Below, piece after piece: positions 11,576 to 63,656 of a DNA stretch of 64,000 nucleotides. The DNA lies in the IMG/VR virus record IMGVR_UViG_3300029288_005871, positions 1 through 64,000 of that record; one strand, given 5' to 3'. Origin of the DNA: a virus (taxonomy: Duplodnaviria; Caudoviricetes). The notes under the pieces are model-generated. The model saw only the letters and a list, made by a program, of their open reading frames with translations. It searched no databases and was not told the DNA's origin. Position 1 is the stretch's first letter; every line of letters begins with the position of its first letter. The translations under genes were made by a program, and so were the position numbers.

Positions 11576-11576
11576 A

Positions 11577-12104: not shown

Positions 12105-13222
12105 ATAAATAAACTCCTTGTCCCAGACTCCTTAACTTCACCTTTATATTCAAATTCCGTATAACCTAACTTACCAAATTCCTTTGGATACTTTATTCTT
12201 TCTATATCTTCCATTTCAGCCGCATTGCATTCCAAAAATAAAGTCCCTTTGCATAAATCCCGCATATATTGATGGAATCCTATATGGGCATTCATGGAAA
12301 ATATAGTTACTATATCAAACTGGTTCAACCCTGTTTCTTCTTTAACGAGCTGCTGAATATTATCCTGAGTTAAATCACAACCGACAGTTTCTATATCAAA
12401 AAACTCATGAAAATTTGCCATTTCAAAAGTAGCATTTGCTATTTCAGAAGTATCAACCCCGACTATTCTTTCCGCATTCCTTTCCTTTGCCCAAAAAAGC
12501 ACTTGGCCACCGCTACAGCCGATATCCAATACAGTCTTACCTGTCAAATCCATATCTGACATACCCATAAGCTCATATCTTTTATAAGACCGGCAACCTT
12601 CTATTCCGATAGAAGGAATATGCTGATAAGCCTTACTGTCATTACCCCAGAAAGCAGTTTTTTGGTATCTTTTATATAAATCCTGTTTATATTTTTCCTT
12701 ATCATCAAATTTAAACTCATCAAAATCAATAAGCTTCTCATTAATAAAATTAGCTGAATAATAATCCTTACCATAAACACCTATAAAAAACTCTTTTAAT
12801 TTTTCTGTATATTCATTCCATAAAACCGGCGATCTGTCTTTATGGGGAAAAGAACCTTCCAGATACTCTACTATATGGGATTTATAAATACTTCCGTCTA
12901 TATCTTCTACCTCTATAACGTCATAAACTCTTGGGGCAAAACCTTTTAGCCATGCGATATTTTTAATGATATATTTATCCATCGTAAATCCATCATTCTG
13001 AAATTGGAAATTTACTTTTACTGTTACTAGCAGATTAGGAAATCTTTTTACTATTTCAGGAAAATAATCTGAAACCTTATCTTTTTTTAAGATAAATGAA
13101 TTTCCTCCTACATGGCAGTCTGGAAAGTCTTGGAATGCCCCCCATACCTCCATGTTCCATATAAAATGTTCATTCTCATCTCCTATAATCGGTAATTTTT
13201 TTATGGATTTATATTTTCTCAT
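12095..13222 (-). CDS. Kinase-like domain fused to a SAM-dependent methyltransferase
   Basis: N-half: FAPRVY, IVEYLEG, DYYSANFI, KLIDFD. C-half: TVLDIGCSGG..IVGVD. Confidence 0.7.
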   Translation of the reverse strand: MRKYKSIKKLPIIGDENEHFIWNMEVWGAFQDFPDCHVGGNSFILKKDKVSDYFPEIVKRFPNLLVTVKVNFQFQNDGFTMDKYIIKNIAWLKGFAPRVYDVIEVEDIDGSIYKSHIVEYLEGSFPHKDRSPVLWNEYTEKLKEFFIGVYGKDYYSANFINEKLIDFDEFKFDDKEKYKQDLYKRYQKTAFWGNDSKAYQHIPSIGIEGCRSYKRYELMGMSDMDLTGKTVLDIGCSGGQVLFWAKERNAERIVGVDTSEIANATFEMANFHEFFDIETVGCDLTQDNIQQLVKEETGLNQFDIVTIFSMNAHIGFHQYMRDLCKGTLFLECNAAEMEDIERIKYPKEFGKLGYTEFEYKGEVKESGTRSLFICR

Positions 13223-13818
13223 TTAATTGCTTTCATTCTAAAATCAAATTGCGGTTCTGCATGACCAATTGGACCTGAATTACCATGACCAAAACCGACA
13301 GGTATTTCCTCAATATTAATAAAACCTCTCTCATTTAACTTAAACCTTAAATATTCTTTTGAATATCCGCAGAGATGAAATTGTCCTTCTCCATCACATC
13401 CTGTTGTTCCATATAATAAACCCATCACCCTATACCAAGGATGAAAGTCAGAATCAGTAATATGGACTTTAGGAAACATTTCACAAGCTCTGGTTAAATC
13501 TGGCACTTCAATTTCCACAATCCCACCTAGTTTGCAAACCCGATGAGCTTCTTTAATAGCCAAATTTCCATGTTCCATTGAAACATGCTCTAAGACATGG
13601 ACTAAAATTACCCTGTCAAAAGTATTATCGGGAAAATCCAAATGAACTATATCCCCGTAAACCCAAGGAGATTCTGGATGATCCTGATTCCAAGTATCAG
13701 CCAAAGGCTTATAAGTTAAAGGCACAGGAGAACCTGGATAATAATATTTGTCGATATTTGTGAAGCCCAAAAGTGGGACATTACCGCACCCCAAATTAGC
13801 TTGTTTTAAGTTTTCCAT
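13219..13818 (-). CDS. Class I SAM-dependent methyltransferase (type 11)
   Basis: NLGCG..GFTNID, HVLEHV, VEIEVPD. Confidence 0.85.
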   Translation of the reverse strand: MENLKQANLGCGNVPLLGFTNIDKYYYPGSPVPLTYKPLADTWNQDHPESPWVYGDIVHLDFPDNTFDRVILVHVLEHVSMEHGNLAIKEAHRVCKLGGIVEIEVPDLTRACEMFPKVHITDSDFHPWYRVMGLLYGTTGCDGEGQFHLCGYSKEYLRFKLNERGFINIEEIPVGFGHGNSGPIGHAEPQFDFRMKAIK

Positions 13819-14807
13819 AAACCGCCTTTCAAATATCTATCAATTAATATCATTAGTTCCTTTATCCTTGCTTTAGACGTAAACCTATCCCTACCTATCT
13901 TATAACCTCTTTGGGCTATTTTTTCTCTTTCTTCATCATGGCTTAAATAATACTCTATTTTTTGATTAGCTTCATCTATACTGGAAAAGTACTCTGCCCC
14001 ATCCCGCAAAAAAAGTTCCATCCCTGGAGCATACTGGTAAAGCAAAAAACCGCCCAAAGTCAGCACTTTTCCAGTCCGATTGCTCCAATAACCCCAAGTA
14101 TCAGGATTAACTGAGAATCCTAAACATATCTTTGTCTCTGCTACTTTTTGAACAAAATCATAACCATATACAGGCGGATAAGCTTCCAATCCCAACTTCT
14201 GCCAACCTTCATGATTCCAGCCAAAACATACTACTTTATGCTTTTTATTTATTTCTGGTATCCAAACCAGTCTATCTCCCTGACCAATACAGCTACCAAA
14301 AAATGCCACGTCATATTTCACTTCAACTGTCGGTGCAATTTCTAAATTAATCCTGTCAAACTCTTCAGAAGAAACATCCATAGGAAAATAATAACAGTTG
14401 GTAAAATCTTTATATTGCGGATGAAAAATATCATTAGAAATGTATAAATCTGCACTCTTTACCATTTGGTCATGCCCATGAGGAAACCCTTCCATACAAT
14501 CCCAAACCCAAAAAAAAACTGGAGCTTCTTTTAAACTTGTCCATTCTTTCAACTTACTGATATATTTACCATCGTTAAAATGATTCCATTTACAGATAAT
14601 ATTAACATCTACATCTCTAAATGGTACTTTATCCTGCCAATTATCATCCCATTCACCATCACAAACCGCCTTCCAAATGTCTCTGGGAATTCTCCTGACT
14701 TTATGCCCCAACTCTTCAATTTCCCTTGTAAGCATCACTTCATCGCTTATTTCTCCCACATAGCCTGTCTGGTAATTCCCGATAAAATTAATGATTAACT
14801 TTTCCAT
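13806..14807 (-). CDS. Glycosyltransferase, CgeB/Glyco_trans_1_2-like
   Basis: YDVAFFGS, TKICLGF..SNRTGKVLTLGGFLL, KIEYYLSHDEEREKIAQRG. Likely start MEKLII at 14807. Confidence 0.85.
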   Translation of the reverse strand: MEKLIINFIGNYQTGYVGEISDEVMLTREIEELGHKVRRIPRDIWKAVCDGEWDDNWQDKVPFRDVDVNIICKWNHFNDGKYISKLKEWTSLKEAPVFFWVWDCMEGFPHGHDQMVKSADLYISNDIFHPQYKDFTNCYYFPMDVSSEEFDRINLEIAPTVEVKYDVAFFGSCIGQGDRLVWIPEINKKHKVVCFGWNHEGWQKLGLEAYPPVYGYDFVQKVAETKICLGFSVNPDTWGYWSNRTGKVLTLGGFLLYQYAPGMELFLRDGAEYFSSIDEANQKIEYYLSHDEEREKIAQRGYKIGRDRFTSKARIKELMILIDRYLKGGLWKT

Positions 14808-47248: not shown

Positions 47249-48865
47249 TCACCAAATACCACCTCCCGCAAAAGATTCTAAAACAACCGCTTTTTTGTTT
47301 TCAACATCAGTATCAAAAAACTTCAGGTCAACACTACCTACCGCATTACCCTTGGTCTTGGAAACATAAAGCCAGCCATTATCAGTCATCTTGATCTTAT
47401 GGGGATCATCAGCATCTTTTTGCCTGACTACAATCAAAACATCAGTCGAGTCCTGCTTGAAGGAAGCGGAACCGGCTATATCGTCAGAAGTCGGAGCAGT
47501 TTCTTTCTTTTGCTCTTTAGCCCTTTTCCTCAGATGGGCGATAACCATGATGGCCATCTTTTTTTCCTTGGTGATAAACCTCAACCTTTTTAAGACATTC
47601 GCCTGCTCCTGCAAATAATTAGACCTGTCGGTAACAAAATAACCGATATGGTCGATAATAACCAAGTCATAATGCTCCTCCAAAGAATTTATCGTCTTTT
47701 CCAGATCCTGGATGTTCTCAATATCCCTGTCAACAAACAGGTCGATATAACTTTCCTTATCAGCTAAATCCTCCTTGGCCAACTCCCTGTATGGCTTATC
47801 CAGCCTGATTGATGCCAGCATCTCCACAATCTTGTTCCCTGTTTCTAAAGCAATATACAGGACTTTTTTCTTCTGCCTGGCGACATTGACAGCAAAATTA
47901 CAAGCCATAGTGGTCTTACCGACATTAGTATCGCCGGTAAAACAGTAAAGGTTGCCAGGAATAAACCCGACTATCAGGTCATCTAAAGAAGGAAACCCTG
48001 TCTTGGGAGCTATCTTCTCGAATTCCCTTTCTTTTAACCTCTCTTCTACTACCTCTGATACCTTTCTGGGAACCTTACTGGTATTTTTCTTGTTTAGGTC
48101 ATAATACCTGACTGCCTGCCTGAAAATCGTGTCTACCTCATGCTGTGTTAATGGCGGGGTATAATTTCTGCCAATGTTAACCACCATGTCATAAACATTC
48201 CTCTTGTCAAGCCTGTTAAGAAGGCTTCTTGCCAGCCTGAATAAACCATCATTTCTCTCCCCTGCTCCCAAAAACAGGTAGTCGTTGATGTTAACCAGAC
48301 TACTGGTCAGTCTTTTAACTTCTCCAGCAACCTCTGGTGTTGAGGAAAGCGATGGCATGTTTTTTAAGTTTTCCTTTGTCGGCGGGAAAACCCATTCGTA
48401 TTTCAACTCTTGGTTGTCAACTTTCCTAATGGTTGGCGGAATGATGACATAGCCTCCTTCGCTCCTGACATCAATGTTTTTTCCGGCAATATTTACCCTG
48501 TTGCCATAACCTTCTTCAAACTTCAGGAAGAAATGCCTGCCGCCGGTTCCAGTCCTGCTGATCACCGTAGATTTCATCTTAGTGACTAGATCGTTGGACA
48601 AACCGCTTTTTTTAGCACTGTCATCGTCTATAACCATAATGCCGGATAACTTTCCGGTGATTACTGCCACCCCATGTTCTGTTTCGGAAAACCACTTCTC
48701 TAACTCCTCGTCTGAAGCCAACCTGCTTCTATAGGGAACAACTTCGGCAATGGCTGGTGTCTTATTGTTGTTGACCGGAAAGACCGACCATCCGATTTCC
48801 TTATACCTTTTCGCCCATTTGTAAACTTGGTTCATACAATACCTTTCTCTTTGAGTGATGCCCAA
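47249..48865 (-). CDS. Bifunctional Prim-Pol primase fused to a DnaB-like SF4 helicase
   Basis: GWSVFPV, VIDDD, TGGRHFF, DVRSEGGYVI.PP; GDTNVGKTT, IIDHI, IAH, IAGS..QDS. Confidence 0.9.
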   Translation of the reverse strand: MGITQRERYCMNQVYKWAKRYKEIGWSVFPVNNNKTPAIAEVVPYRSRLASDEELEKWFSETEHGVAVITGKLSGIMVIDDDSAKKSGLSNDLVTKMKSTVISRTGTGGRHFFLKFEEGYGNRVNIAGKNIDVRSEGGYVIIPPTIRKVDNQELKYEWVFPPTKENLKNMPSLSSTPEVAGEVKRLTSSLVNINDYLFLGAGERNDGLFRLARSLLNRLDKRNVYDMVVNIGRNYTPPLTQHEVDTIFRQAVRYYDLNKKNTSKVPRKVSEVVEERLKEREFEKIAPKTGFPSLDDLIVGFIPGNLYCFTGDTNVGKTTMACNFAVNVARQKKKVLYIALETGNKIVEMLASIRLDKPYRELAKEDLADKESYIDLFVDRDIENIQDLEKTINSLEEHYDLVIIDHIGYFVTDRSNYLQEQANVLKRLRFITKEKKMAIMVIAHLRKRAKEQKKETAPTSDDIAGSASFKQDSTDVLIVVRQKDADDPHKIKMTDNGWLYVSKTKGNAVGSVDLKFFDTDVENKKAVVLESFAGGGIW

Positions 48866-49746
48866 TAACGGTCATACCTGTCCCTCATGCCGCCTTTTTC
48901 TGGGTGGAAACTCTTAATCGCAAAAGACTGGAACTCATCCCATTCTGGAATATGACCTCTGGTAACATCCATATTCAACCAACGGGTGAGGGTAAAATAC
49001 ATCGTCTTATGCCTTGGATACAACCGCTTCATCTCTCCTCCTTTAACCAGTTCCAAAAGCTCGGAATGCTTTCTCAAAACATATTCCAACCAGATACGGT
49101 TATTGCAGGCAATGTTATAAAGTTCCTGGTTGGTACAGGGAACCATGGCTGTTTTTGCGGAAAGAGGTTCACTTTCAACATTTACCTTTTTCTTTTTTAT
49201 GTTGTTTTTTTGTTTGACTGAATTGGGGGAACCGTTTGTGGAAAGGGGGCTTTTTTGGAGGGGTAATATGTATTTTACAAGAGGGGGGGTATTATTAATA
49301 TATATGGGGGGAGATTTAGGGGAACCTTTTTTGCCAGCTAGTAGGCTTTTTCCTACTAGTAGGCTTTTTCCTACTACCCCCTTGGAATAAGAATGGGGCT
49401 TTATAAAGCCAAAAACCCTGCCTACTAGTAGGCTTTTTCCTACTACCCATCGAGAATATGTTGTATTGAAGCTCCAAACCTTAGTACCTAGTAGGCTTTT
49501 TCCTACTAGTAGGCTTTTTCCTACTAGCTGATCCAAAATTTCCTTTACTGACGGTCTGGAGATGTGGGTAAGTTTTTGAAAATCTGTCAAAGAAATGGCA
49601 TTTTCTTTTTTACCTTCTCCAAGTGTTTTTAAAAGCACCACCCAAATGACTTTCCATTCATTTCCAGACAAATGGAGAGAACATAGCTTTTCAGCTATTT
49701 TAGGAGATATAACGATACTGCCATTTTCTATCTGGGCATTTTCCAT
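48832..49746 (-). CDS. Phage replication initiator, lambda O-like
   Basis: N-terminal LSGNEWKV..LLKT.G..K..IS..F..T wHTH resembling lambda O; internal iterons. Confidence 0.75.
   Translation of the reverse strand: MENAQIENGSIVISPKIAEKLCSLHLSGNEWKVIWVVLLKTLGEGKKENAISLTDFQKLTHISRPSVKEILDQLVGKSLLVGKSLLGTKVWSFNTTYSRWVVGKSLLVGRVFGFIKPHSYSKGVVGKSLLVGKSLLAGKKGSPKSPPIYINNTPPLVKYILPLQKSPLSTNGSPNSVKQKNNIKKKKVNVESEPLSAKTAMVPCTNQELYNIACNNRIWLEYVLRKHSELLELVKGGEMKRLYPRHKTMYFTLTRWLNMDVTRGHIPEWDEFQSFAIKSFHPEKGGMRDRYDRYWASLKEKGIV
49338..49523. repeat. Five identical 18-bp iterons CTAGTAGGCTTTTTCCTA (putative replication origin)
   Basis: Copies at 49338, 49356, 49425, 49488 and 49506, inside the O-like gene. 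Confidence 0.85.
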
Positions 49747-50488: not shown

Positions 50489-51592
50489 TTAGAAAGCATT
50501 ATTATATAACTTTTGTCCTAAGTAAGTTATAACATTAACTGTAACCGCATTTCCACACATCTTGTATCTTTGCGTGTCGCTTATAAGTTCCCCGTCTGTA
50601 CCATATTTAGTCCAGTTATCAGGAAAACCCTGTAAGCGTTCACATTCAATAGGTGTTAATCTTCTAATAGACATTCCCTGTTTAATTCCGCCAGTATTTG
50701 CCCCATCTACAGTAAAAGAATAATCGCCTTTAATATTTTTCTGGTTGCGTTGTAAAAATTTAAGTGGATGTCTTTTCGGTTGGTTGTTTTCAACAACATA
50801 TTGATTACCATTTTTTTGTCCTAATCTTCTTGTTTTTTGTGAAATGAGTTCAAATTCAGCCACATAAGATCCTGTCGTATTCCCTTTCCAATATTGGGCT
50901 TTGATTGTATTGGCAACATTTTTACATCCCGATATTTTTCCGTTAAATTCCTTGTCATCGTTTCCGATAGGAAATACTTTTGGTCGGGGTTGTCCTCTAA
51001 GATTTCCGATAATGAACACTCTTTCCCTATTCTGTGGGACGCCGAAATTCTTGCTGTTAAGCACTTACCATTGGACATCATACCCAAGCTCAGTAAGCGT
51101 GGCGAGGATGGTTTTGAAAGTTCTGCCAGAGTCATGAGATAGCAGTCCTTTGACGTTTTCCAGTAAACACAGTCTTGGCTGCTTCTTCTTGAGAATCCGA
51201 GCGATGTCAAAGAATAGTGTTCCTCTGGTGTCGTTAAATCCCCCCCGTTTGCCAGCAATACTAAAGCTCTGGCAAGGAAATCCCCCGCATAAGAGGTCGT
51301 GATCGGGGATATCGGAAGCAGGGACAGTTGTGATGTCATGGGTGTCGCACTCCCCGAAGTGTTTTTTGTAGACTGAGGCTGCGTATTTGTCCCACTCGTT
51401 TGAGTAGACACAACTAAAGGCATTGCTGCTTTCCCTCCCCTTTTGGCCGGAGTTAATGTCGGGCTTATCCCCGTCTGGTCGTATATCATCCCTGCTTGTC
51501 CGTTGCTCTTGTATATGTTCCCCAGCTTTTTCAAGTCCATATCTGAATCCTCCTATTCCAGCAAATAAATCTATAAATCTGATTTTTTTCAT
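50489..51592 (-). pseudogene. DNA cytosine-5 methyltransferase interrupted by an in-frame TAA (51065-51067)
   Basis: Motifs I (DLFAGIGG), IV (GFPCQ), VI (ENV), VIII (PQNRER), IX-X all in one frame; QW*VLNSK. Confidence 0.85.
50821..51540 (-). CDS. Overlapping alternative-frame ORF inside the methyltransferase gene (239 aa)
   Basis: Open for 239 codons; contains LGNIY..GQAG.IYD..GISPTLT and SLSEILE....KYFLSE, both methyltransferase-variable-region-like. Confidence 0.5.
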   Translation of the reverse strand: MDLKKLGNIYKSNGQAGMIYDQTGISPTLTPAKRGGKAAMPLVVSTQTSGTNTQPQSTKNTSGSATPMTSQLSLLPISPITTSYAGDFLARALVLLANGGDLTTPEEHYSLTSLGFSRRSSQDCVYWKTSKDCYLMTLAELSKPSSPRLLSLGMMSNGKCLTARISASHRIGKECSLSEILEDNPDQKYFLSETMTRNLTEKYRDVKMLPIQSKPNIGKGIRQDLMWLNLNSFHKKQED

Positions 51593-52149
51593 TCTACCAG
51601 TTTCTTCAACAATTCTACTTCAGTTTCGTTTTCTTTTCCACAGTTATGGCTTGAACAGAGATAGAGAACTCTTTCCTTTTTACCTTCTGATTCATAAACA
51701 GTTACCTTGTAGATTCCTATGGCTTCTTTCAGGCAGAATTTGGCTTGGCATTTATGCTGTTTAAGTGTAGTTTGTGGTTCTGGAGTTTCTATAACAGGTT
51801 GTAGAACGCTGTTTATAGGAACTGGAGGTATCTGGTCAGTTTTAGCTTCATCTGCATTGATCTGATGCAACTTGTTAGAGTTTTTATCACCTTGCATTGA
51901 TTTAATGTCATCAATCTGATGCAAATTATTAGAATAATTATTAGTCTGCATCAATCTGATGCCATTGATCTGATGACTGGCATTAATCTGATGCACTTCT
52001 TGTCTTAAAGCCTCTTTTAACTCTTTTGTTAAGTTAAAATTACGAATTAAATGAAGAATAAAGTCATTAATTGATATAAATCCATCATCTTTAAAATGTT
52101 CTTTAATCTTGGAATAATATTCATCTGGAATATTGATAGTTGTTCTCAT
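51589..52149 (-). CDS. Ribbon-helix-helix (CopG-like) protein with HQI[N/D] repeats and C-terminal Cys cluster
   Basis: MRTTINIPDEYYSKIK..SINDFILHLIR. Confidence 0.6.
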   Translation of the reverse strand: MRTTINIPDEYYSKIKEHFKDDGFISINDFILHLIRNFNLTKELKEALRQEVHQINASHQINGIRLMQTNNYSNNLHQIDDIKSMQGDKNSNKLHQINADEAKTDQIPPVPINSVLQPVIETPEPQTTLKQHKCQAKFCLKEAIGIYKVTVYESEGKKERVLYLCSSHNCGKENETEVELLKKLVE

Positions 52150-52258
52150 AATTTAGTCTGCATCGATCTGATGCAACCTGTCAGTTTAGCTTTAAAAGCA
52201 TTAATCTGATGCAAGTATTATTATCTTGCATCAATCTGATGCCATTGATCTGATGCAA
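51853..52258. repeat. Nine copies of a palindromic GCAT(Y)(R)ATCTGATGC motif
   Basis: ATCTGATG cores at 51860, 51914, 51954, 51968, 51986, 52166, 52204, 52234, 52248. Confidence 0.85.
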
Positions 52259-52267
52259 CCTGTCAGT

Positions 52268-52441
52268 TTAAATCTTGTTAATTGATTTTAATGATTCTTG
52301 TTTTTTTAATTCTTTCTCTTTAGAAATATCTTTACGAATAAGATCAAGAATATAAGAAGAAAAGGTTGTATAGCCTTCTACAGGAAGTCTTTCTTTGATT
52401 TCAGAAGCAAATTCATTAGGAATAGTAAGAGATATTCTCAT
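52268..52441 (-). CDS. Ribbon-helix-helix protein (57 aa; not in ORF track)
   Basis: MRISLTIPNEFASEIKERLPVEGYTTFSSYILDLIRK; paralog of the N-terminus of 51589-52149. Confidence 0.7.
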   Translation of the reverse strand: MRISLTIPNEFASEIKERLPVEGYTTFSSYILDLIRKDISKEKELKKQESLKSINKI

Positions 52442-52864: not shown

Positions 52865-52893
52865 TTGACAGGTTGATTTTCCTATGTTATATT
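52865..52893 (+). promoter_or_regulatory. Rightward sigma70-type early promoter
   Basis: TTGACA-17-TATATT with TGn extension. Confidence 0.7.
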
Positions 52894-53137: not shown

Positions 53138-53323
53138 GTGGTGATATTTATGGACTATGTACATATAAACATTAAAGTATCTAGGAATTCATCAAATAAG
53201 CTAGGAATTATTATTTTATCAATCTTTACTATTTATATGCTTTGTCAATTCAGCAGAGCATGGGGCAGTAAAGAAGGTTACACACAAGCTATAAATGAGT
53301 TAAGAATAGAACAAGGCAAGTAA
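53138..53323 (+). CDS. Small membrane protein
   Basis: Central TM segment. Confidence 0.5.
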   Translation: MVIFMDYVHINIKVSRNSSNKLGIIILSIFTIYMLCQFSRAWGSKEGYTQAINELRIEQGK

Positions 53324-53676
53324 AGCTTTGACTATTGGCTTCGTATTCTTAACATACGAGGCCAAAAGCTAAAACTTTAAAAACTAGCACATTAATAATT
53401 TAATACTATCAACCCTATAAACTAGAGCAAGCGGGAAGGATTAAAATGTCTAAAAAAGACTATACAAAAATAGCGGATATCTTTAAAAATAACCGCTTTA
53501 ATAGTAGAAAATTTAAAGAGTATATAGAACAATAAGCAGATTATAAACTTACCTATCTAGTGGTGAGCTTGTCGAACCATTAAATAGGCTCATTACAAAA
53601 AGTTATAAATCGCTTGCTCTGATTTATGGGGTTGATAATCACTGGCAGATATAAGGGTATAGCGGGAAGGTAAAAC

Positions 53677-53979
53677 ATGACTGAATACTATAAATTAGTT
53701 ATTGATAAAACAGCTCGACCAATGGGAAATAATAAGGAATGGTCAAGATACGATCAGGAAATAAAATACTTTAAAAGTATAGAGGAAGCAAAAAAATATG
53801 TAAAAGATCAATATTTTTATTGCAAAACAAAGTACAAAACTTTTAATGATAATGAAGAAGGCCAAACTGGTTGGATTTATGCTTTTAAAAGTGATCCCGC
53901 TAGTTATGATGATTGTAAACATTATGAACAACACTGGATAAACTTATTTAGAATACATTCAAAACCATGTTTATTCTAA
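53677..53979 (+). CDS. Hypothetical early protein
   Basis: 100 aa; Shine-Dalgarno present; enclosed by an inverted repeat. Confidence 0.75.
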   Translation: MTEYYKLVIDKTARPMGNNKEWSRYDQEIKYFKSIEEAKKYVKDQYFYCKTKYKTFNDNEEGQTGWIYAFKSDPASYDDCKHYEQHWINLFRIHSKPCLF

Positions 53980-54054
53980 AACATTTATAGCTATACCCTT
54001 ATATCTGCTAGTGATACTTATATCTTTATACCTGGCAAGCTAGGAAGGAAAACC

Positions 54055-54375
54055 ATGCACAACGAAACAATAAACATATGGACTGCTGGAGCGTTAGAAA
54101 CCCGTAAAATATCTATTGTAAACAATGCAACCGATATTTTAGAGCTGATAAAAATAGGCAAGAAGCTAAATAATTTCTATACCCATTCATGTAATGGGTA
54201 TAATTCAGAGAAATATGATCGTTTAGCTTTAAAATGGGAGAAAAAAGCCCAAGAGATAACCAAACGTATGAAAGTATATATTTACTTTCAAACTGACCCA
54301 AGAGGCGGAACTATCTATATAGATAATAAACCAATACCAAACAATAATTATACGCAAGCTGTATTTTTAGGATAA
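54055..54375 (+). CDS. Hypothetical early protein
   Basis: 106 aa, CNG..QTDPRG; enclosed by an inverted repeat. Confidence 0.75.
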   Translation: MHNETINIWTAGALETRKISIVNNATDILELIKIGKKLNNFYTHSCNGYNSEKYDRLALKWEKKAQEITKRMKVYIYFQTDPRGGTIYIDNKPIPNNNYTQAVFLG

Positions 54376-54505
54376 TAAATAAGCCTTGCGGGATAGCTTG
54401 AGTTCGCAAGGCTTCAAGCTATCCAATAAAAAACAATATTAAAACATTAAATAGCTTGCCAGATATAAAGATATAACAATATAAACAAAAGGGAGGTGAT
54501 TATAT

Positions 54506-55114
54506 ATGATTTTAGATAAAAAAATTATGGGTGTTTGTTCGATAGCTTCAACAGATGAAACACGGCCTATTCTAACAGGTGTATTACTAAAAGATAACAA
54601 GGCTATTGCAACGGACGGTTATTCACTTATTGAAACAGAATTGCCACATATTGACAATGTGGAAACTAAACTGCCTCCAACGGGCAACCAATATATAAAC
54701 GGCGAAACCATGCTTATATCAGCTGTGCAATTATCTAAAGTTCTTACTAATATTCCGAACAAACCGAAGCTACCTATTTTAGGTTACGCTTGGACTGCTA
54801 AAAGTTCAAATGAAAAAACCGTTAAAATTGTATCAAGCGACTTGGAAACAACAAACGCACCGGAAATAATGACTATTGAAGGTAATTATCCAGATTATAA
54901 CAAAGTTAAACCTGTAACAGAAGTTAAAGCTAAAATAACGGTAAACGCTAAATATCTTATAAAGCTTTTACAGGCTGTCATTAAAACAGATCCCGATCAA
55001 ATCAATAATATTGTAACAATCGAGGTTCGATCAGAAAAAGAACCAATAGTTATCAAAAACGGTAACGGGGAAAATTCAAAAACTTATGCTATGCAAATGC
55101 CTTGCAGAGTTTAA
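54506..55114 (+). CDS. Truncated DNA polymerase III beta-clamp-like protein
   Basis: STDETRPILTGV, IATDGY.L, IEGNYPDY..V, VNAKYL; 202 aa. Confidence 0.78.
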   Translation: MILDKKIMGVCSIASTDETRPILTGVLLKDNKAIATDGYSLIETELPHIDNVETKLPPTGNQYINGETMLISAVQLSKVLTNIPNKPKLPILGYAWTAKSSNEKTVKIVSSDLETTNAPEIMTIEGNYPDYNKVKPVTEVKAKITVNAKYLIKLLQAVIKTDPDQINNIVTIEVRSEKEPIVIKNGNGENSKTYAMQMPCRV

Positions 55115-55287
55115 GGCTTTACTATAACCATCTGTTACAGGTGGTTATAGATAAAATCTTAAATTTCTAAAATTAAAATAATGCTAGTAAAACCTTATAG
55201 TAAATTTAGGCTCAAAGCTAAAGGCAACCGAAATCCCGTCCTACAGCTTTTAGGCCACTAGCCTATAGAATTGGAGGTGATTAAATT

Positions 55288-55467
55288 ATGGACTACTATT
55301 ATAGACAATACTTAAAAAGGCATAATCTTGACCAAACCACTACATCAACTAATAAGTCAATAGACGTATACAAACAACTAAGCGACTACGATAAACCTAA
55401 AAAAGAAAGATGGCTTGATAGCGCAATCAACAAGATCAATAACGGCTACCTGATCGAGACTTATTGA
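55288..55467 (+). CDS. Small hypothetical protein (59 aa; not in ORF track)
   Basis: GGAGGTGA Shine-Dalgarno. Confidence 0.55.
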   Translation: MDYYYRQYLKRHNLDQTTTSTNKSIDVYKQLSDYDKPKKERWLDSAINKINNGYLIETY

Positions 55468-55474
55468 CTACCAT

Positions 55475-55513
55475 AAAACCACTGGCTATTTTTAATCCGG
55501 CTGGTGGTTTTTT
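55475..55513 (+). terminator. Putative intrinsic terminator
   Basis: AAAACCACTGGCT..GGCTGGTGGTTTT plus a T run. Confidence 0.5.
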
Positions 55514-55540
55514 ATTCCTTCTTTTACCTTGCTCTACCTC

Positions 55541-55569
55541 TTGACTTTCTTATTATAATATGTTATTAT
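55541..55569 (+). promoter_or_regulatory. Putative sigma70-type promoter
   Basis: TTGACT-17-TATTAT with TGn extension. Confidence 0.5.
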
Positions 55570-55600
55570 ACTTACAACAATAGTTTAATGGTTTTAAAAC

Positions 55601-56170
55601 ATGATACAAACTCAATTACCACTTTCATCTATTGCCGGTAACGAAGTAGCCAAACGTGCTATAGAAATCTCTTTAACCGGCAACCATTCTATAAACTTTA
55701 TAGGCAATACCGAGGCTATTCTACTTTCCAACCGAGCTAGATTTTTAGGTTTAAATTCTAAATCTTTAAAACCGTGTTCTTGCGGTAACTTTAAAGATCC
55801 TAATAACGCTTGCTCCTGTACTCCTGAACAATTACAGACTCACTACAACCAACTGGAAAACCTACAGGCTGATCTTACCATCTATACTACCAAACCAACC
55901 TATGAGCAGATTATACGGGCTTACAATAACCAGAATGAGGCCGAGTTAACCTTGCTCGAACGGGTAAAACAGGCTAAGACAAGAGAGATAAAAATAGACC
56001 TGCCTAAAATAGATAGTTTACTATCTCAAGCTACTAAAACATTATTACTCGATCAACTTCAATTCCTAAAAGTGTTAGAAATATCTAAAACCATAGCCAA
56101 ACTTGCCAATTCCCCAGAAGTAGAAAACCAGCACTTAGCAGAAGCACTACAATACAGGTTTAAAACCTAA
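55601..56170 (+). CDS. Mini ComM/YifB (Mg-chelatase-like) protein lacking the ATPase core
   Basis: IAGNEVAKRAIEI..GNH, PCSCG..C.C, ISKTIA.L..H.AEALQYR. Confidence 0.7.
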   Translation: MIQTQLPLSSIAGNEVAKRAIEISLTGNHSINFIGNTEAILLSNRARFLGLNSKSLKPCSCGNFKDPNNACSCTPEQLQTHYNQLENLQADLTIYTTKPTYEQIIRAYNNQNEAELTLLERVKQAKTREIKIDLPKIDSLLSQATKTLLLDQLQFLKVLEISKTIAKLANSPEVENQHLAEALQYRFKT

Positions 56171-56187
56171 AAAGGAGGTGATAATTT

Positions 56188-56409
56188 ATGATTGAGCCAA
56201 TTACAAAAAACATGAAAGAATATCTGGAATGGCAAGATAAATATGGTGTTACTAAATTTATTGATGATAAAACAGGTGAAGGCCATAGAGGGGTAATAGT
56301 ACAAAACAATGGGACAGAAGCGATTGTTTATGGTTTAACAGGAAAATATGTAAACCAATTAGTAAAAATTAAAGAAGTAAATCCTGACCAGTGGGCAATA
56401 ACTTATTAA
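56188..56409 (+). CDS. Hypothetical early protein
   Basis: AAAGGAGGTGA Shine-Dalgarno. Confidence 0.7.
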   Translation: MIEPITKNMKEYLEWQDKYGVTKFIDDKTGEGHRGVIVQNNGTEAIVYGLTGKYVNQLVKIKEVNPDQWAITY

Positions 56410-56437
56410 ATATTATTCATAAAGGAGGTGAAAAAGT

Positions 56438-56896
56438 GTGGACAAAGTTAAAAAACAGGCACAACATTTATATGACGGTTTTACCCGTATTGATATTGAC
56501 CATGATGAAGGCGAAGAAGCTACAAGGCTAGTCTTAAAAGATGAAATAAAATCTGATAGGTGGGAAGAATTATCTGATTTATTGTTTGATGTAGGAGAAG
56601 AAACAAAACTTTCTCAAGATAGTACCTACGAGTTTACCCATGAAGCACTAGGCTTAATATCAGACGCTACAGGTGAAACGGGAAATGAGCTAAGAGAAAT
56701 AGGCTACGGGATCGAACCAGATGTATACACTTCTACTCTAACCGAGTGGCTTAATGAAAGTAACTATCATGTCTACTTTTTAGATGAAGCTATAGACAAC
56801 GGAGCTAAAACTGGTTTTGATGCTTTGGCTATGGCACAACAAGAGGCAAAAAGACAGGTTTTTGATCTAGTATTAGACCATTTACTGAAAAAATAA
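56438..56896 (+). CDS. Acidic early protein
   Basis: 35 D/E versus 15 K/R in 152 aa; strong Shine-Dalgarno; GTG start. Confidence 0.75.
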   Translation: MDKVKKQAQHLYDGFTRIDIDHDEGEEATRLVLKDEIKSDRWEELSDLLFDVGEETKLSQDSTYEFTHEALGLISDATGETGNELREIGYGIEPDVYTSTLTEWLNESNYHVYFLDEAIDNGAKTGFDALAMAQQEAKRQVFDLVLDHLLKK

Positions 56897-56971
56897 TTAA
56901 GGCTTTACTTTACCCGTAAACCTTTGCGGGTAAAGATAAGGGCTTAATAAATAAAAAGGAGGTGATTAAAT

Positions 56972-57142
56972 ATGACCGAACAATTAAAAAATGACGCTTA
57001 TACATTAGCTAATTATGTTTCTCAAGAAAGCCTACAATCAGAACTTGACGACTGTTTATATGCTAAAAAAAGCGGAGATAGTTATTCACAGTTAAACAAC
57101 GTAATCAAGGTTATTAAAATGGCAATAAAATTATTAAATTGA
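56972..57142 (+). CDS. Small hypothetical protein (56 aa; not in ORF track)
   Basis: AAAGGAGGTGA Shine-Dalgarno; stop codon forms the start of a stem-loop element. Confidence 0.6.
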   Translation: MTEQLKNDAYTLANYVSQESLQSELDDCLYAKKSGDSYSQLNNVIKVIKMAIKLLN

Positions 57143-57209
57143 GGCTTGACTTAGCCGTCTATTTTTAGATGGCTAAGATGAGGTTTTAATTAAAAGGAGG
57201 TGAAAAATT

Positions 57210-57380
57210 ATGGTTACTTATACCGAAAGATGGGGTAATTTATGGCAACTATTTATTAAAGAAACCTACAGTGAAAGAGATAAAAAATTTTGGGTCACTA
57301 AAAAAGAAATGTTTGAATTAGATAAAAAATTCGAGAGGTTTTTATTTAAGTTAAATGAAAACTTAGGTATAGCCGGTTAA
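57210..57380 (+). CDS. Small hypothetical protein (56 aa; not in ORF track)
   Basis: AAAGGAGGTGA Shine-Dalgarno. Confidence 0.6.
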   Translation: MVTYTERWGNLWQLFIKETYSERDKKFWVTKKEMFELDKKFERFLFKLNENLGIAG

Positions 57381-57409
57381 TAAAAATATAAAAAAGGAGG
57401 TGATAATTT

Positions 57410-57658
57410 ATGAAAGTTTTGCAAGTTAAAGAATATAACCAACAACAAGAGATAAAATATAGCCAAAAAAGTAAAGAATGGGAACCTGGAAAAGGTGGTT
57501 TTCCACAAATAGCTTTTTATTTATTCTATACCACTTATGGAAGTGAAAGACAAACAGGCTATGTTGCATTTAGTGAAAATAGACACTGTGCAATATGGAG
57601 AAGCAAAAAAAGCGAAGCTATTAAAGAATTCCAAAAAAGTTACGGTAAATTATCATAA
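57410..57658 (+). CDS. Hypothetical early protein
   Basis: Strong Shine-Dalgarno. Confidence 0.7.
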   Translation: MKVLQVKEYNQQQEIKYSQKSKEWEPGKGGFPQIAFYLFYTTYGSERQTGYVAFSENRHCAIWRSKKSEAIKEFQKSYGKLS

Positions 57659-57688
57659 AAATTTTAATTAAGAGGAGGTGAATAAACT

Positions 57689-57928
57689 ATGATCTACAAC
57701 TATCAAAATGCCATGAGTAAAAAACATTATTTAAAATGCTTGAGAAAAGCTCCTGAATGGATCAATCAAGACGTACCAGATATTTACAGATCTGATGGTA
57801 CTAGAGCAATTGAATGTACTTTTCCAGAATATAAGTTTTTTGTCTATGCTGATAATAAAGACGAAGCTAAACAGCTTGAACAGTTTATATATCTTAATAC
57901 CGGCAAAATAGCAGAACTATATTATTAA
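57689..57928 (+). CDS. Hypothetical early protein
   Basis: Strong Shine-Dalgarno. Confidence 0.7.
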   Translation: MIYNYQNAMSKKHYLKCLRKAPEWINQDVPDIYRSDGTRAIECTFPEYKFFVYADNKDEAKQLEQFIYLNTGKIAELYY

Positions 57929-58000
57929 GGCTTTATTCTACTGCTTATTAAATTAAGCGGTAGAAATAAAATCTTAATACTAAGAAGGAGGTGATAAATT

Positions 58001-58198
58001 ATGCAAAAATATACCAGAGATGATTTAATAGACAACTTAATTAAAGACGATCTTTATATCCAAGAAACAGAAGAAGCAGCCGACTATTTAGATAATATTC
58101 TAAGAAGTGGTTTTAAAGGTTATTCCCACTTTACAGATGGCGAACTGATCGAAGAATTTAATACCCGTACAGATGAAGAATGGAATTTTATTAAATAA
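58001..58198 (+). CDS. Small acidic early protein
   Basis: Strong Shine-Dalgarno. Confidence 0.7.
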   Translation: MQKYTRDDLIDNLIKDDLYIQETEEAADYLDNILRSGFKGYSHFTDGELIEEFNTRTDEEWNFIK

Positions 58199-58226
58199 AT
58201 TTAAAAAACAGATAGGAGGTGATTTT

Positions 58227-58376
58227 ATGAAATACGATCCTACAATGATAAATGATGAAGGTACTGGGAAAAATTACGAAGGAAAATGCCAAGAATGTGA
58301 TAAAGAAAAAATAATTATTTATGATTATGCTACCCAGAAATGGTTTTGTAAAAGATGTTACAAGGAAAACGGTTAA
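58227..58376 (+). CDS. Small zinc-finger protein
   Basis: GGAGGTGA Shine-Dalgarno before MKYDP; CQEC..CKRC. Confidence 0.6.
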   Translation: MKYDPTMINDEGTGKNYEGKCQECDKEKIIIYDYATQKWFCKRCYKENG

Positions 58377-58462
58377 TAGACCATTAGTATAAATTAAGGC
58401 TTGACTTTCCCCGTTAATTTTAGCGGGTAAAGATGAGGCTTTAAAAAGGAGGTGATTAAATT

Positions 58463-58633
58463 ATGAAAAAATTTAGATTTACAGCCAGAGCAGTAGATGT
58501 ATTGGAAGAAATAATTGAAGCTGAAACAATCGAAAAAGCAGAAAAAATAGCACAGGAGCATTTAGAAAATGGATCAATACCTATAGTCGGAGAGGGATAT
58601 ATTGACAATGAAGAACTTGAGGAGATCAAATAA
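58463..58633 (+). CDS. Small acidic hypothetical protein (56 aa; not in ORF track)
   Basis: Strong Shine-Dalgarno; IEAETIEKAEKIA. Confidence 0.6.
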   Translation: MKKFRFTARAVDVLEEIIEAETIEKAEKIAQEHLENGSIPIVGEGYIDNEELEEIK

Positions 58634-58772
58634 TTGAGGCTTGACTGGCGAGGTAGAGGGGAGTTTGGTAAAGCCTACAAGCAAAACTTTTACCTTGCCT
58701 TGCCAGATGAGGTCTTAATCGCTCTTTAACAAAATAACCCGCCTAAATTGTCTTAGACGGGCTAGTAGTATA

Positions 58773-58940
58773 TTAAAACTGATTAAAGAATTTATCAAGA
58801 GTATTTATGTAATCCTTGTTTATTCTTTCCGTTAGCTTAGTATCACATTTTTCATGGATAAGGCTTGGTTTACCCTCAGCAGTAAATACTTTTTTAACCT
58901 TACTGCTACTAAGGTGTTTTTTACAAAGTAAACATTTCAT
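58773..58940 (-). CDS. Small convergent hypothetical protein (55 aa; not in ORF track)
   Basis: AAGGAGGTGA Shine-Dalgarno; CxxC...HxxC. Confidence 0.55.
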   Translation of the reverse strand: MKCLLCKKHLSSSKVKKVFTAEGKPSLIHEKCDTKLTERINKDYINTLDKFFNQF

Positions 58941-61857: not shown

Positions 61858-62505
61858 ATGGCAGAAGCCAAAGATAAATCATTAACTACTGTTTCCAAGG
61901 AATGGCTTAACGAACACGCCGACCTTGGTATAGAAACCATTACTTCAAGCGACCTGCCGGTTCCCAGACTTTCGCTAGTCCAAAAGACTTCAACCAAATG
62001 TATTCTCAGGGATGGCAATAACGCCAAAGAGGGTCTTTTTTATTATGCCGGTACCAAGGAGCAATCTGAAACATTCCCTTGCGCCTTGTTATCAGTCAAA
62101 AAAGAGTTTAAGCCGTCTTTCACTAACAAGGAACAGATGGAAGAAGTCTGGACTTTTATCGGTGCTACCGAAAAAGACTGGCTGCCTTTCATTTTTTCCT
62201 GTAGACGGACTTCCCTAAACGGAGCTAAAAGCTTCATCGCCAACGTCAAAATGAGCCATGTGCCGATGTTCTCCTTAAAGGTAGTCTTAGAATCACGCTA
62301 TATCCAGAGCCAAAAGGGGAATTTCTACATAGTTGCCTTTACAGACATTGGTTATCGGGAAAGCCAGGAACAGTTGTTACTGCTTTCTAACCTAGCTAAA
62401 AAATACAAGGCTTATGAGCCGATGGGTGGGGAAGATGTCCTAGAGGAAGAAATACCGCCAATAGAAGAAACAGAGGGTAATCCATCAGGTGATATGCCAT
62501 TTTAA
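61858..62505 (+). CDS. Probable single-stranded DNA-binding protein
   Basis: DLPVPRLSLVQ motif; acidic tail ending DMPF, like SSB C-terminal tips. Confidence 0.6.
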   Translation: MAEAKDKSLTTVSKEWLNEHADLGIETITSSDLPVPRLSLVQKTSTKCILRDGNNAKEGLFYYAGTKEQSETFPCALLSVKKEFKPSFTNKEQMEEVWTFIGATEKDWLPFIFSCRRTSLNGAKSFIANVKMSHVPMFSLKVVLESRYIQSQKGNFYIVAFTDIGYRESQEQLLLLSNLAKKYKAYEPMGGEDVLEEEIPPIEETEGNPSGDMPF

Positions 62506-63656
62506 CCTTTTATAACTGCCAAAGGTATCAGTTTTACTTTAATTTTGACTAACTCCTGTTGGTTAGCCATAACTGTATCTATGTCTTTATATGCTCCAGG
62601 AGCTTCATCTAAATCCTGTATACTTCTGGGCTTGCCTAAAATACTTTCCATTTTTTTTTGTTCTTTTTCAAGATTTAATGTTCTTCTTGCTTCATTCCTG
62701 CCCATTTTCCTGCCAGCTCCATGGGAACAGGACTTAAAACTTTCCTCATTACCTAATCCTTCGACAATATAACTGGTTGTACCCATTGAGCCAGGAATAA
62801 TACCAGTTAATCCTTGGGTTGCCTTTGTTGCCCCTTTCCTATGAACTAAAACATTCTTACCGAAGTGATTTTCCAAAGTAGCATAGTTGTGGGCAATATT
62901 TATCATTGATTCCCATTCCATTGAAAGTTCTTCGGACATAATATCTAAGATTCTATCCATCATTAATTTTCTATTGGCTAAAGCAAAATCAACACAATAA
63001 GTCATTGCCTTAAAATATTCTTCGCCTTCTTTGGTATCTATTGGTAAAAATGATAATTCTTTATCAGGTACATCAGATTGCCATTTTTCACATAAGGCTA
63101 AAGCCTTTTTATGGTATTCAGTTGCGGTTTTCAAACCGAAGTTGCGACTACCTGAGTGAAGCATTATCCAAATAAACCCATCATCGCCTTTTTGGATTTC
63201 AATGAAATGGTTGCCTCCGCCTAAAGTACCTATCTGGTATTGAGCAGACTGTAATTCTTTTTGGATTATCTCAATATCAGGAGCTTTATCAAACCCTTCC
63301 CATTCCTGCTTTTCTTTGTGGTGGTTAAATCCAACTGGTACAGCTTTTCTAATTTCTCCCATAATTTCTTTTATTGTTTCGGTTGGTAATTCTTTCAAAG
63401 AAGTTTTAACAGCTACCATTCCACAACCGATATCTACTCCCACTAAAGAAGGAATTACTACGTATTTAGTAGCCACAACTGATCCTATACTTGCCCCGAT
63501 TCCTAAATGACCATCAGGCATTAAAGCAGTATGGCTGTATAGAAAAGGTAAAGAACTTACTTTTACCATTTGTTCAATACATTGTTCTTCTATTGAATTT
63601 TGGGTAGAAAATACCTTTAAGGGTACTTTCATTTCTTCAGATTTGATTACATACAT
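62502..63656 (-). CDS. rtcB: RtcB family 3'-phosphate/5'-OH RNA ligase
   Basis: MPDGH.G, GVDIGCGM, GTLGGGNHFIE, HSGSR, HRKGAT, PGSMG, SHGAGR, DEAP.AYK. Confidence 0.96.
   Translation of the reverse strand: MYVIKSEEMKVPLKVFSTQNSIEEQCIEQMVKVSSLPFLYSHTALMPDGHLGIGASIGSVVATKYVVIPSLVGVDIGCGMVAVKTSLKELPTETIKEIMGEIRKAVPVGFNHHKEKQEWEGFDKAPDIEIIQKELQSAQYQIGTLGGGNHFIEIQKGDDGFIWIMLHSGSRNFGLKTATEYHKKALALCEKWQSDVPDKELSFLPIDTKEGEEYFKAMTYCVDFALANRKLMMDRILDIMSEELSMEWESMINIAHNYATLENHFGKNVLVHRKGATKATQGLTGIIPGSMGTTSYIVEGLGNEESFKSCSHGAGRKMGRNEARRTLNLEKEQKKMESILGKPRSIQDLDEAPGAYKDIDTVMANQQELVKIKVKLIPLAVIKG

Follow-up and report, generated by a model that had tools for sequence, protein, structure and literature searches.

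A hairpin of about 55 bases is repeated at the stop codons of many small early genes in an uncultured phage. It occurs in the window, here the 64,000-nucleotide stretch covering positions 1 to 64,000 of IMG/VR record IMGVR_UViG_3300029288_005871, as six solid copies (e2-e7) and one weak, divergent copy (e1). The explanation we prefer, and to which we give about an even chance, is that these elements are cut-and-protect signals of the RNase III type, served by the host enzyme and tied to the termination of translation, with a design like that of phage SPO1 but not homologous to it, recombination at the repeats being a side effect. The structure of the elements, their strand specificity, their covariation, their placement with respect to stops, starts, promoters and terminators, and the reshuffling of genes around them are observed directly. 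Judging from the signals around them, the early genes would be transcribed as two polycistronic messages running from promoters to terminator. The features are the following.

52865-52893, plus strand: sigma-70-like promoter of the first early operon, 11/12 match, TG-extended
53319-53382, plus strand: e1, divergent copy; the stop of ORF 53150-53323 is at element positions 3-5
53407-54476, plus strand: three abutting long-range duplexes of 25-27 bp with one gene inside each (inverted repeats I4, I1, I3)
55110-55164, plus strand: e2, short apex, after the clamp-like gene 54506-55114
55475-55518, plus strand: canonical intrinsic terminator at the end of the first operon, 13-bp stem, -15.6 kcal/mol, U-run UUUUUUAUU
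55541-55569, plus strand: sigma-70-like promoter of the second early operon, TTGACT-17-TATTAT, with TG
56896-56949, plus strand: e3, short apex, after gene 56438-56896 and followed by AGGAGGTGA
57138-57191, plus strand: e4, short apex
57924-57979, plus strand: e5, short apex, after gene 57689-57928
58393-58446, plus strand: e6, short apex, 17 nt past the stop of gene 58227-58376
58633-58720, plus strand: e7, long apex (L-type), last in the array
58735-58764, minus strand: terminator hairpin of the convergent gene 58773-58940, 15 nt past e7

Each element is a 24-bp hairpin consisting of a sequence-conserved lower stem of 12 bp and a variable, paired apex. The arms in all copies are UUAAGGCUUGA and AUGAGGYYUUAA, and within the lower stem twelve positions never vary among phages that have hardly any genes in common. 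The centre is irregular: usually a G.G mismatch is followed by one base pair and then by a bulged A on the 3′ strand. Short-apex copies place 10-12 lower pairs and 11-13 upper pairs around this A, for a duplex of 23-24 pairs, and e7 reaches up to 34. The bulged A, mentioned in the earlier note as one unpaired base in the right arm, is invariant in 20/20 family members. The core U.G / U-A / G.G (5′-UUG / 5′-GAG) with its G.G mismatch is present in 15/20 copies; e2 has U-A at position 11 and its partner, and a C.A mismatch at position 8. On one 24-pair structure, 94% of the cells of e2-e7 are paired and 11 pairs show compensatory changes; 0/500 shuffles reach the score, and slid controls are 31-54% paired. 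Alignment of the 20 distinct copies gives 92.5% paired cells and compensatory changes at 15/24 pairs (0/500 shuffles reach the score). The description of a conserved base below a variable but paired apex is thereby upheld. A K-turn or box C/D reading of UUGA...GAUGA was rejected, as position 11 and its partner covary (G.G / U-A / A-U) and hence face each other; by alignment reasoning, the K-turn register also disrupts the remainder of the lower stem.

Copies e2-e7 each fold as a single long hairpin (z -4.6 to -8.3) and score 59-73 bits with R1, the covariance model built from them, which found no further copies in the whole 82-kb record. Seven such stem-loops had been claimed at the outset; six stand as solid and the seventh, e1, is divergent, reaching 14.1 bits (E 0.11 in 7 kb) with the same layout and stop-codon position and a fold of -22 kcal/mol (z -6.1). 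The sense strand folds better in 23/24 copies, by a mean difference of -11.9 kcal/mol, so that the preference for the sense RNA suggested earlier holds with e1 as the sole exception. A gapless inverted-repeat scan is blind to bulged, wobble-rich stems of this kind, and the threshold of the genome-wide local-fold scan was too lax. The apex of e6 is related to that of e3. The long-apex variant is always last in its array and has a conserved loop, YAAAGCCUC (about 8 nt), complementary to the arms. In e7, for instance, the apical loop reads GUAAAGCCU and is perfectly complementary to AGGCUUUAC, which occurs in the 5′ arms of e2 and e3, and in prefix folds of the long-apex variant the 5′ arm pairs with the loop in 6/7.

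The elements are placed with precision relative to translation. All copies lie between co-oriented ORFs or past the last ORF, and the upstream stop codon coincides with element positions 3-5 in 16/22 cases (binomial P 2e-4). The strong ribosome site AGGAGGTGA is found immediately after only four elements (e3, e4, e5 and e6). After e2 it comes about 110 nt further on, and after e1 and e7 it is missing, which narrows the earlier statement that most elements precede one. No start codon adjoins e2 or e7. At two loci elsewhere in the family (L118 and L136), the element is followed after 0-1 nt by the start of the next gene, for which the 3′-arm GAGG is the sole ribosome site. The earlier view that the elements are not terminators is also sustained: they have A-rich tails without U-runs, the terminator scan calls no element as a whole, and an intrinsic terminator reading is excluded for lack of a U-run. 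The true terminator at 55475-55518 in the same cluster indicates that the phage uses ordinary terminators where termination is wanted. The first operon is also punctuated by double-stranded RNA of another kind, the three predicted long-range duplexes, whose arms are 53407-53433/53611-53637, 53638-53663/53990-54015 and 54018-54042/54452-54476, and all of which are present in the minimum-energy fold of 53300-54520. Duplexes of 25-27 bp that would loop out single genes are the classical shape of an RNase III substrate, and they are counted in favor of the RNase III explanation.

By analogy with known sites, we infer that a cut is made, by what enzyme and where, together with its stabilizing effect. 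Host RNase III would bind the duplex and cut within or close to the irregular centre, on the 3′ strand. This would leave the upstream message ending in a protective hairpin, while the downstream message would start just upstream, by a few bases, of a very strong ribosome-binding site, which in Firmicute-type hosts protects a 5′ end. A ribosome terminating at positions 3-5 would melt the lower stem and leave the upper stem closed, and in some copies melting may unmask the 3′-arm GAGG that serves as the ribosome site of the next gene. The near-identical lower stems could double as crossover points for ordinary homologous recombination.

The closest parallel is found in Bacillus phages. When folded, the host-takeover module of SPO1 shows hairpins at five intercistronic positions, built with a conserved base that holds a stop codon, a 3′-heavy irregular centre and a covarying apex; these hairpins we take to be the mapped SP82-type sites of Panganiban and Whiteley 1983 and Stewart et al. 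1998. Work by Panganiban and Whiteley 1983 and Mitra and Bechhofer 1994 reportedly concerns Bs-RNase III processing sites of phages SP82 and SPO1. Both systems feature a hairpin that recurs between very small early genes equipped with strong ribosome sites, and share the conserved base, the covarying apex, the 3′-heavy centre and a stop in the 5′ base (UAG in SPO1, UAA or UGA here). The core U.G / U-A / G.G (5′-UUG / 5′-GAG) occurs in 5/5 SPO1 hairpins, against 15/20 copies here. However, the lower stem has 10-12 bp here and 6-8 bp in SPO1, the centre has a single bulged A here and a 2x3 internal loop in SPO1, and the long-apex variant with its conserved loop is absent in SPO1. With filters off, R1 does not match the five hairpins in SPO1 1-14000, only the 3-bp core being common, and the link is therefore one of design only. 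The phages are unrelated, and cleavage has been shown for SP82, whereas here it is predicted. SP82 and T7 targets with internal loops receive one cut, on the downstream side (PMC1935012), the SPO1 terminal redundancy contains RNase III sites (PMC3896407), and a ribosome-site sequence stabilizes SP82 mRNA (PMC7509114).

The early sites of T7 (R0.3, R0.5, R1, R1.1, R1.3) are likewise intercistronic on an early polycistronic transcript, with about two helical turns and a central irregularity, which in T7 allows cleavage of the 3′ strand only, a protective hairpin being left at the 3′ end (PMC1935012, PMC8708148). They differ in sequence and host type, have an asymmetric internal loop instead of a mismatch and one-base bulge, and lack the fixed in-stem stop codon seen here. 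The bulged A on the 3′ strand, together with the G.G (15/20 copies), lies where a loop confining the cut to that strand would be expected, but it is smaller than the T7 and SPO1 loops and may or may not confine cutting as they do.

Several observations fit the RNase III explanation less comfortably. RNase III requires little sequence, and the twelve invariant lower-stem positions would be explained at least equally well by a partner that recognizes sequence. Half of the duplex is melted by a ribosome sitting at the embedded stop, which would compete with RNase III, and the RNase III model assigns no function to the conserved loop found in the long-apex variant. A bolder reading makes the element a translation-termination-gated RNA switch and more than a nuclease site. 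The lower stem is the very portion opened by a ribosome halting at the in-built UAA or UGA; upstream translation would free the SD-like 3′ arm and let the terminal YAAAGCCUC loop capture an arm, and the downstream message would be translated, cut or degraded depending on whether the gene before it is being translated. The module would also be an exchange point for accessory genes in a glycan-cluster phage lineage. We think this unlikely as a whole.

Two further readings also place the function of the element in RNA. The elements may be uncut structural punctuation, acting as a barrier to 3′ exonucleases after decay or downstream termination and coupling translation, in that a terminating ribosome would melt the lower stem and so expose the 3′ arm or a nearby ribosome site. 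The stop at positions 3-5 and the arrangement at L118 and L136 speak for it, as does the length of the lower stem, which approximates the stretch that the helicase activity of the ribosome unwinds ahead of the A site. Yet most copies have a separate, unmasked AGGAGGTGA downstream and do not need coupling, e2 and e7 have no adjoining start, and the constant upper-stem length, the invariant bulged A and the G.G mismatch are left unexplained; we consider this reading unlikely. Alternatively, the wobble-rich lower stem, the G.G and the bulged A might be read by a sequence-specific RNA-binding protein or nuclease, of phage or host, that regulates or processes early messages. Such an operator would suit the twelve invariant positions in phages with almost no common genes, the invariant centre and the conserved long-apex loop. 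A phage-encoded partner is not visible, however, as the only families common to the three large element-bearing records are sugar-modification enzymes (blastp, 1e-4, a threshold that remote homologues would escape). On the host side, one strict two-arm pattern found no true copy in 185,579 bacterial and archaeal species genomes, and hence no use of the motif that would point to a host protein. An operator of this kind is distinctly unlikely in our judgment.

The remaining readings give recombination the leading part. Integron-like or HUH-type single-stranded DNA sites, at which the folded plus strand would be cut and rejoined to move cassettes, are suggested by the attC-like layout of conserved base, extrahelical base and variable apex. 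Like attC sites, the elements follow promoterless small ORFs in one orientation, often contain the stop codon and have variable cassette order between them. Near-identical elements are also set in unrelated flanks. For example, e4 and L154:1760-1813 are 87% identical including the apex, while their flanking genes are unrelated. However, the R″/R′ cores of attC (RYYYAAC ... GTTRRRY) are missing from the arms, as the earlier note had already remarked, and the upper stem is kept fully paired and constant in length, two constraints that attC sites do not have. The recombinogenic folded strand of attC is the bottom (non-coding) strand, whereas here the coding strand folds (23/24). A tyrosine recombinase or Y1 transposase, for which the earlier note had advised a check, was not found: Phage_integrase (PF00589) is absent from four element-bearing records (G000, the window's own, with G001, G002 and G006), which are 34-78% complete, such that absence is no proof, and Y1_Tnp (PF01797) is absent from the window's own record. 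The lack of this HUH transposase and of true chromosomal copies in the 185,579 species genomes (strict pattern) also sets the elements apart from REP/RAYT and IS200/IS605 systems. We regard DNA cassette sites as very improbable. Hardly any credence is given to a PeSL-like mobile regulatory cassette, a conserved promoter/terminator module whose main evolutionary role would be accessory-gene shuffling by homologous recombination. The 5′ arm contains TTGACT, TAnnAT-like hexamers lie just before the 3′ arm, and genes are shuffled at the elements. PeSLs of T4-like phages are similarly short conserved intergenic modules between accessory early genes at recombination breakpoints (PMC2839356, PMC4122927), and have been described as recombination points (PMC4122927). 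Here, though, the hexamers are at least 22 nt apart (more than 50 nt in e7), a wrong spacing on which the sigma-70 promoter reading of TTGACT...TAnnAT was rejected; the promoter scan makes no promoter-like call in e2-e7, there is no terminator tail, and wobble-dependent folding of one strand into a conserved helix points to RNA rather than duplex DNA.

The family is rare in viral collections. Pattern scans and the covariance model, whose construction the earlier note had advised, found it outside the window's record in three other IMG/VR records and five metagenome contigs, to a total of 20 distinct copies. A loose IMG/VR pattern scan returned more than 117 loci, almost all by chance, of which the model kept only L025, L035 and L118; two further IMG/VR patterns gave non-family loci only, with 0 matches to the model. 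The single pattern match in the species genomes scored 19 bits with R1 and looks like chance. Rfam 15 has no match at the gathering threshold and, at an E-value threshold, chance-level microRNA-type matches of 19-25 bits. Among 50,697 phage records, blastn returned nothing that matched the region as a whole, and a protein-guided search with the clamp-like and 152-aa proteins found no close relatives.

Among the relatives, the same elements flank different, rearranged genes. L154 and L157 have one gene and one element in common in differing order with breakpoints at elements, a positive outcome of the check proposed earlier, whether gene order between elements varies. Of the two functions then proposed, RNA processing or cassette recombination, the RNA-level one is favored by strand asymmetry, covariation, the 12+12-bp geometry and the design match to T7, SPO1 and SP82, and a dedicated recombination system is not. 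The mosaic gene order would be explained by the near-identical lower-stem repeats, and regulatory punctuation may thus double as a crossover point for accessory genes without a dedicated recombinase. If the elements are RNase III-type signals, they extend the design of T7 and SP82/SPO1 to an unrelated, uncultured phage lineage. The 20-copy, covariation-supported family exposes its rules: a 12+12-bp layout, a bulged A that never varies, a U.G/U-A/G.G core and a fixed stop position. The textbook picture includes neither the phasing of the stop codon nor a terminal variant whose loop is complementary to the arms. The covariance model can be used to flag early accessory-gene arrays in metagenomic phage contigs.

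An RNase III domain is not encoded in the phage's own record. Splicing or ligation of the hairpins linked to RtcB was considered and left aside, with no bulge-helix-bulge motif and no ribozyme match; RNase III ends are not known to be RtcB substrates. The window does carry an RtcB gene, at 62502-63656.

The source record is an IMG/VR phage of 82,383 bp with 36% G+C, estimated to be 73% complete, and the window is its first 64 kb. Between 52.9 and 58.7 kb lie about 20 small plus-strand genes with very strong AGGAGGTGA ribosome sites. Two sigma-70-like promoters and a terminator divide this block into two early-looking operons, along which the hairpins e1-e7 are distributed:

52865-52893: sigma-70-like promoter (pattern scan)
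53319-53382, plus strand: hairpin e1, divergent
55110-55164, plus strand: hairpin e2, short apex
55475-55518: canonical terminator (13-bp stem, then UUUUUUAUU)
55541-55569: sigma-70-like promoter (pattern scan)
56896-56949, plus strand: hairpin e3, short apex
57138-57191, plus strand: hairpin e4, short apex
57924-57979, plus strand: hairpin e5, short apex
58393-58446, plus strand: hairpin e6, short apex
58633-58720, plus strand: hairpin e7, long apex

Each of e2-e7 folds as one long hairpin (z -4.6 to -8.3). Their common 24-pair structure has 94% of cells paired and 11 pairs with compensatory changes; none of 500 shuffles did equally well, and sliding the partner columns lowered pairing to 31-54%. 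A covariance model built from e2-e7 (R1) scores these six at 59-73 bits and detects no further copy in the 82-kb record. The earlier note had described an array of seven stem-loops, most of them followed by a ribosome site. That description is accurate for e2-e7; e1 shares the layout yet scores only 14 bits with R1 and is not a full member, and a ribosome site directly adjoins the hairpin in four of the seven cases.

Rfam holds nothing for this hairpin family, and the phage collection contains no DNA similar to the hairpin region. Degenerate two-arm patterns were run over the public collections, with R1 serving as a filter on their matches. The wider search proposed in the earlier note recovered true copies in three further IMG/VR records and five metagenome contigs:

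G001, IMG/VR record, 74 kb: one copy
G002, IMG/VR record, 12 kb: one copy
G006 (locus L118), IMG/VR record, 41 kb: two copies
L154, metagenome contig: four copies
L151, metagenome contig: three copies
L157, metagenome contig: three copies
L139, metagenome contig: three copies
L144, metagenome contig: same phage as G001

The same kind of pattern scan over 185,579 bacterial and archaeal species genomes gave a single match, which scores 19 bits with R1 and looks like chance. Taken over 20 distinct copies, the paired share of cells is 92.5%, and compensatory change is seen at 15 of the 24 pairs. The lineage carrying the hairpins is loose: the window's own record, G001 and G006 have in common only sugar-modification and methyltransferase families (blastp).

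The 5' arm of the element is UUAAGGCUUGA, with A or G at position 4 and G, U or A at position 11, and the 3' arm is A-UGAGGYYUUAA. Invariant in all 20 copies are A5, G6, G7, U9, U10 and A12 and, on the opposite side, the bulged A, a U, an A and UUA. Wobble pairs abound in the lower stem, with U9.G in 18 of the 20 copies and, in most, G.U at position 6 or 7. Position 11 and its partner form G.G in 15 copies, U-A in four and A-U in one. Past the bulged A, pairing is maintained but the sequence is free to vary. Short-apex copies have an upper stem of 11-13 bp and a lower stem of 10-12 bp, amounting to approximately two turns of A-form helix with an irregular centre mid-way. The sense strand is more stable by 11.9 kcal/mol on average and is the better-folding one in 23 of 24 copies. 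Folding is strand-specific because of the wobble pairs. This excludes duplex DNA or a cruciform as the functional form and points to action in the transcript or, less likely, as plus-strand single-stranded DNA. In 15 of the 20 copies (e4, e6 and e7 in the window) the 3' arm also reads AUG AGG YYU UAA, a four-codon start-stop frame without its own ribosome site whose AUG consists of the bulged A, the U and the mismatched G; this frame probably just follows from UUAA being palindromic.

The element is phased with the upstream gene. Its stop codon occupies element positions 3-5 (UAA or UGA of UU[A/G]AGG) in 16 of the 22 copies with a called ORF and ends at position 1 in four further copies; at least 16 of 22 stops would fall in one frame by chance with a probability of 2e-4. 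The downstream gene at loci L118 and L136 begins 0-1 nt past the element. Its sole ribosome site is therefore the GAGG in the 3' arm, located 8-10 nt before the start, which the lower stem masks.

Long-apex copies are e7, L154:2535, L151:637, L157:543, L118:6198 and those of G001 and G002. Their tip carries the 8-nt loop YAAAGCCU(C) on a short stem. Wherever the end of an array is visible (window, L151, L157, G006) the long-apex copy is the final element, and in G001 and G002 it is the only one. The loop is complementary to the arms (GAGGCUUUA); for the window's own loop the match to AGGCUUUAC of e2 and e3 extends across nine bases. When only the 5' part of a long-apex element is folded, the 5' arm pairs with the loop in six of seven cases (-8 to -15 kcal/mol). 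A separate motif, CCUCAAG, stands just before the ribosome site after short-apex copies of the relatives (L154:2355-2365; L151:100-108 and 365-372; L157:141-150 and 379-388; L139, minus strand, after 761-814); it is absent after the window's own copies. Its CCUCA is complementary to UGAGG of the 3' arm, and the two could form a small alternative hairpin when the 5' arm is occupied.

Gene order between the elements, which the earlier note had suggested comparing, is not fixed among relatives. L154 and L157 share, in differing order, one gene (96% nucleotide identity) and a 'CTAGTC'-stem element with its ribosome-site region (82%). In L154 an element is followed by gene X and then by the long-apex element; in L157 gene X comes first, then another element, gene Z, the CTAGTC element, gene Y and finally the long-apex element. 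One breakpoint of the similarity falls near element position 12, the opposite one at the start codon. Likewise, e4 and L154:1760 are 87% identical including the apex, with unrelated flanking genes on both sides, and five unrelated families are represented among the genes that precede the seven long-apex copies. Just one gene-element pair stays together, that of the long-apex element and a gene directly upstream of it for an 82-83-aa protein with an N-terminal YNGW(T/A)NWETWN motif (G001 3672-3920, G002 3008-3259, L151 389-637; 38-79% identity).

A known system of similar design is found in SPO1. Folding of the intergenic regions of its host-takeover module (FJ230960, 1-14000) yielded one covarying family of five intercistronic hairpins (locus L173):

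7109-7162
11805-11856
12227-12277
12434-12484
12725-12779

These are presumably the sites mapped in the 1983 (Panganiban and Whiteley) and 1998 (Stewart et al.) papers. They share a conserved base, GGUUGCUAGU ... AUGGAGCC, a 2x3 internal loop and a covarying apex of 10 bp. A G.G mismatch lies between a C-G pair and the pairs U-A and U.G, all four being invariant. In two to three of the five hairpins the stem opens with a UAG stop or has one directly before it. The window family has the same design and the same U.G / U-A / G.G core; however, the two are not homologous, and R1 finds no match on the SPO1 hairpins. RNase III cleavage sites lie within the SPO1 terminal redundancy (PMC3896407), and SP82 targets have internal loops and a single cut on the downstream side, as do bubble-containing sites of T7 (PMC1935012). 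SP82 mRNA is stabilized by a ribosome-site sequence (PMC7509114). In the window family, the phasing of the stop codon and the terminal variant's arm-complementary loop lie outside the textbook picture and are worth testing.

The most likely reading, with about an even chance, is that the hairpins are cut by host RNase III in a manner coupled to termination of upstream translation. The enzyme would dock on the two-turn duplex and nick the 3' strand at the irregular centre, leaving an upstream message with a 3' hairpin and a downstream message whose 5' end falls just before a strong ribosome site. The embedded stop codon would link cutting to translation, because a terminating ribosome would open the lower stem only. 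No RNase III domain was detected in the window's own, incomplete record. It is unlikely that the hairpins instead remain uncut and serve as a stabilizer and coupling device. An operator for a sequence-specific RNA-binding protein would best account for the invariant letters, and is a quite unlikely reading overall.

Recombination does take place at the repeats, and homologous exchange between the near-identical 12-bp arms and the shared ribosome sites is enough to account for it. A dedicated single-stranded-DNA recombination site, in line with the cassette-recombination system raised in the earlier note, is improbable: the recombinases sought were not found, Phage_integrase being absent from the window's own record, G001, G002 and G006 and a Y1 transposase from the window's own record, all of them incomplete. 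Hardly probable at all is a PeSL-like promoter cassette. Defining features of attC sites, PeSL, REP/IS200 hairpins and terminators were looked for in the window family and not found.

A second type of double-stranded RNA occurs in the same operon immediately 3' of e1 (53407-54476), where three consecutive small genes each lie within their own long-range inverted repeat (arms of 25-27 nt, 89-96% complementary) and the three repeats abut. The minimum-energy fold of this 1.2-kb stretch retains all three duplexes. A whole functional RNA looped out by a stem is the classical RNase III substrate shape, for instance in rRNA precursors, and by analogy the duplexes look like excision stems for single mRNAs. 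Their position beside the hairpins argues for one reader of double-stranded RNA common to both. In L154, a homologue with 40% identity to the third-loop gene (54055-54375) is followed by a hairpin element instead. After the window's copy, 54381-54424 holds two overlapping, mutually exclusive hairpins, AAGCCUUGCG/CGCAAGGCUU and GGAUAGCUUGA/UCAAGCUAUCC, which may constitute a two-state structure; their loops of 0 to 3 nt make a pseudoknot topology impossible.

Recognizable proteins of the early block are limited to a half-size sliding-clamp-like protein, a Mg-chelatase C-terminal-like protein, a KaiC/DnaB-like ATPase, a pyrimidine-dimer glycosylase and an RtcB ligase. Two look truncated: the 202-aa product of 54506-55114 resembles half a sliding clamp (phage processivity-factor families), and the 189-aa product of 55601-56170 is similar to Mg-chelatase/ComM-type ATPases in their C-terminal part only. 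The RtcB RNA ligase near the block (62502-63656, minus strand; Pfam E 8e-112) is full-length and presumably serves tRNA repair; no connection between it and the hairpins was found. Further upstream, about ten irregularly spaced copies of ATCTGATGCAA (51841-52270) extend from the region upstream of the minus-strand ORF 51589-52149 into its 5' part, adjoining the divergent promoters, and could be iterons, operators or a coding repeat. The O-like replication-initiator gene (48832-49746, minus strand) contains two copies of a 22-nt palindrome, ACTAGTAGGCTTTTTCCTACTAGT (49339-49376 and 49488-49527), and the pair is a candidate origin within the initiator gene, a placement like that in lambda.
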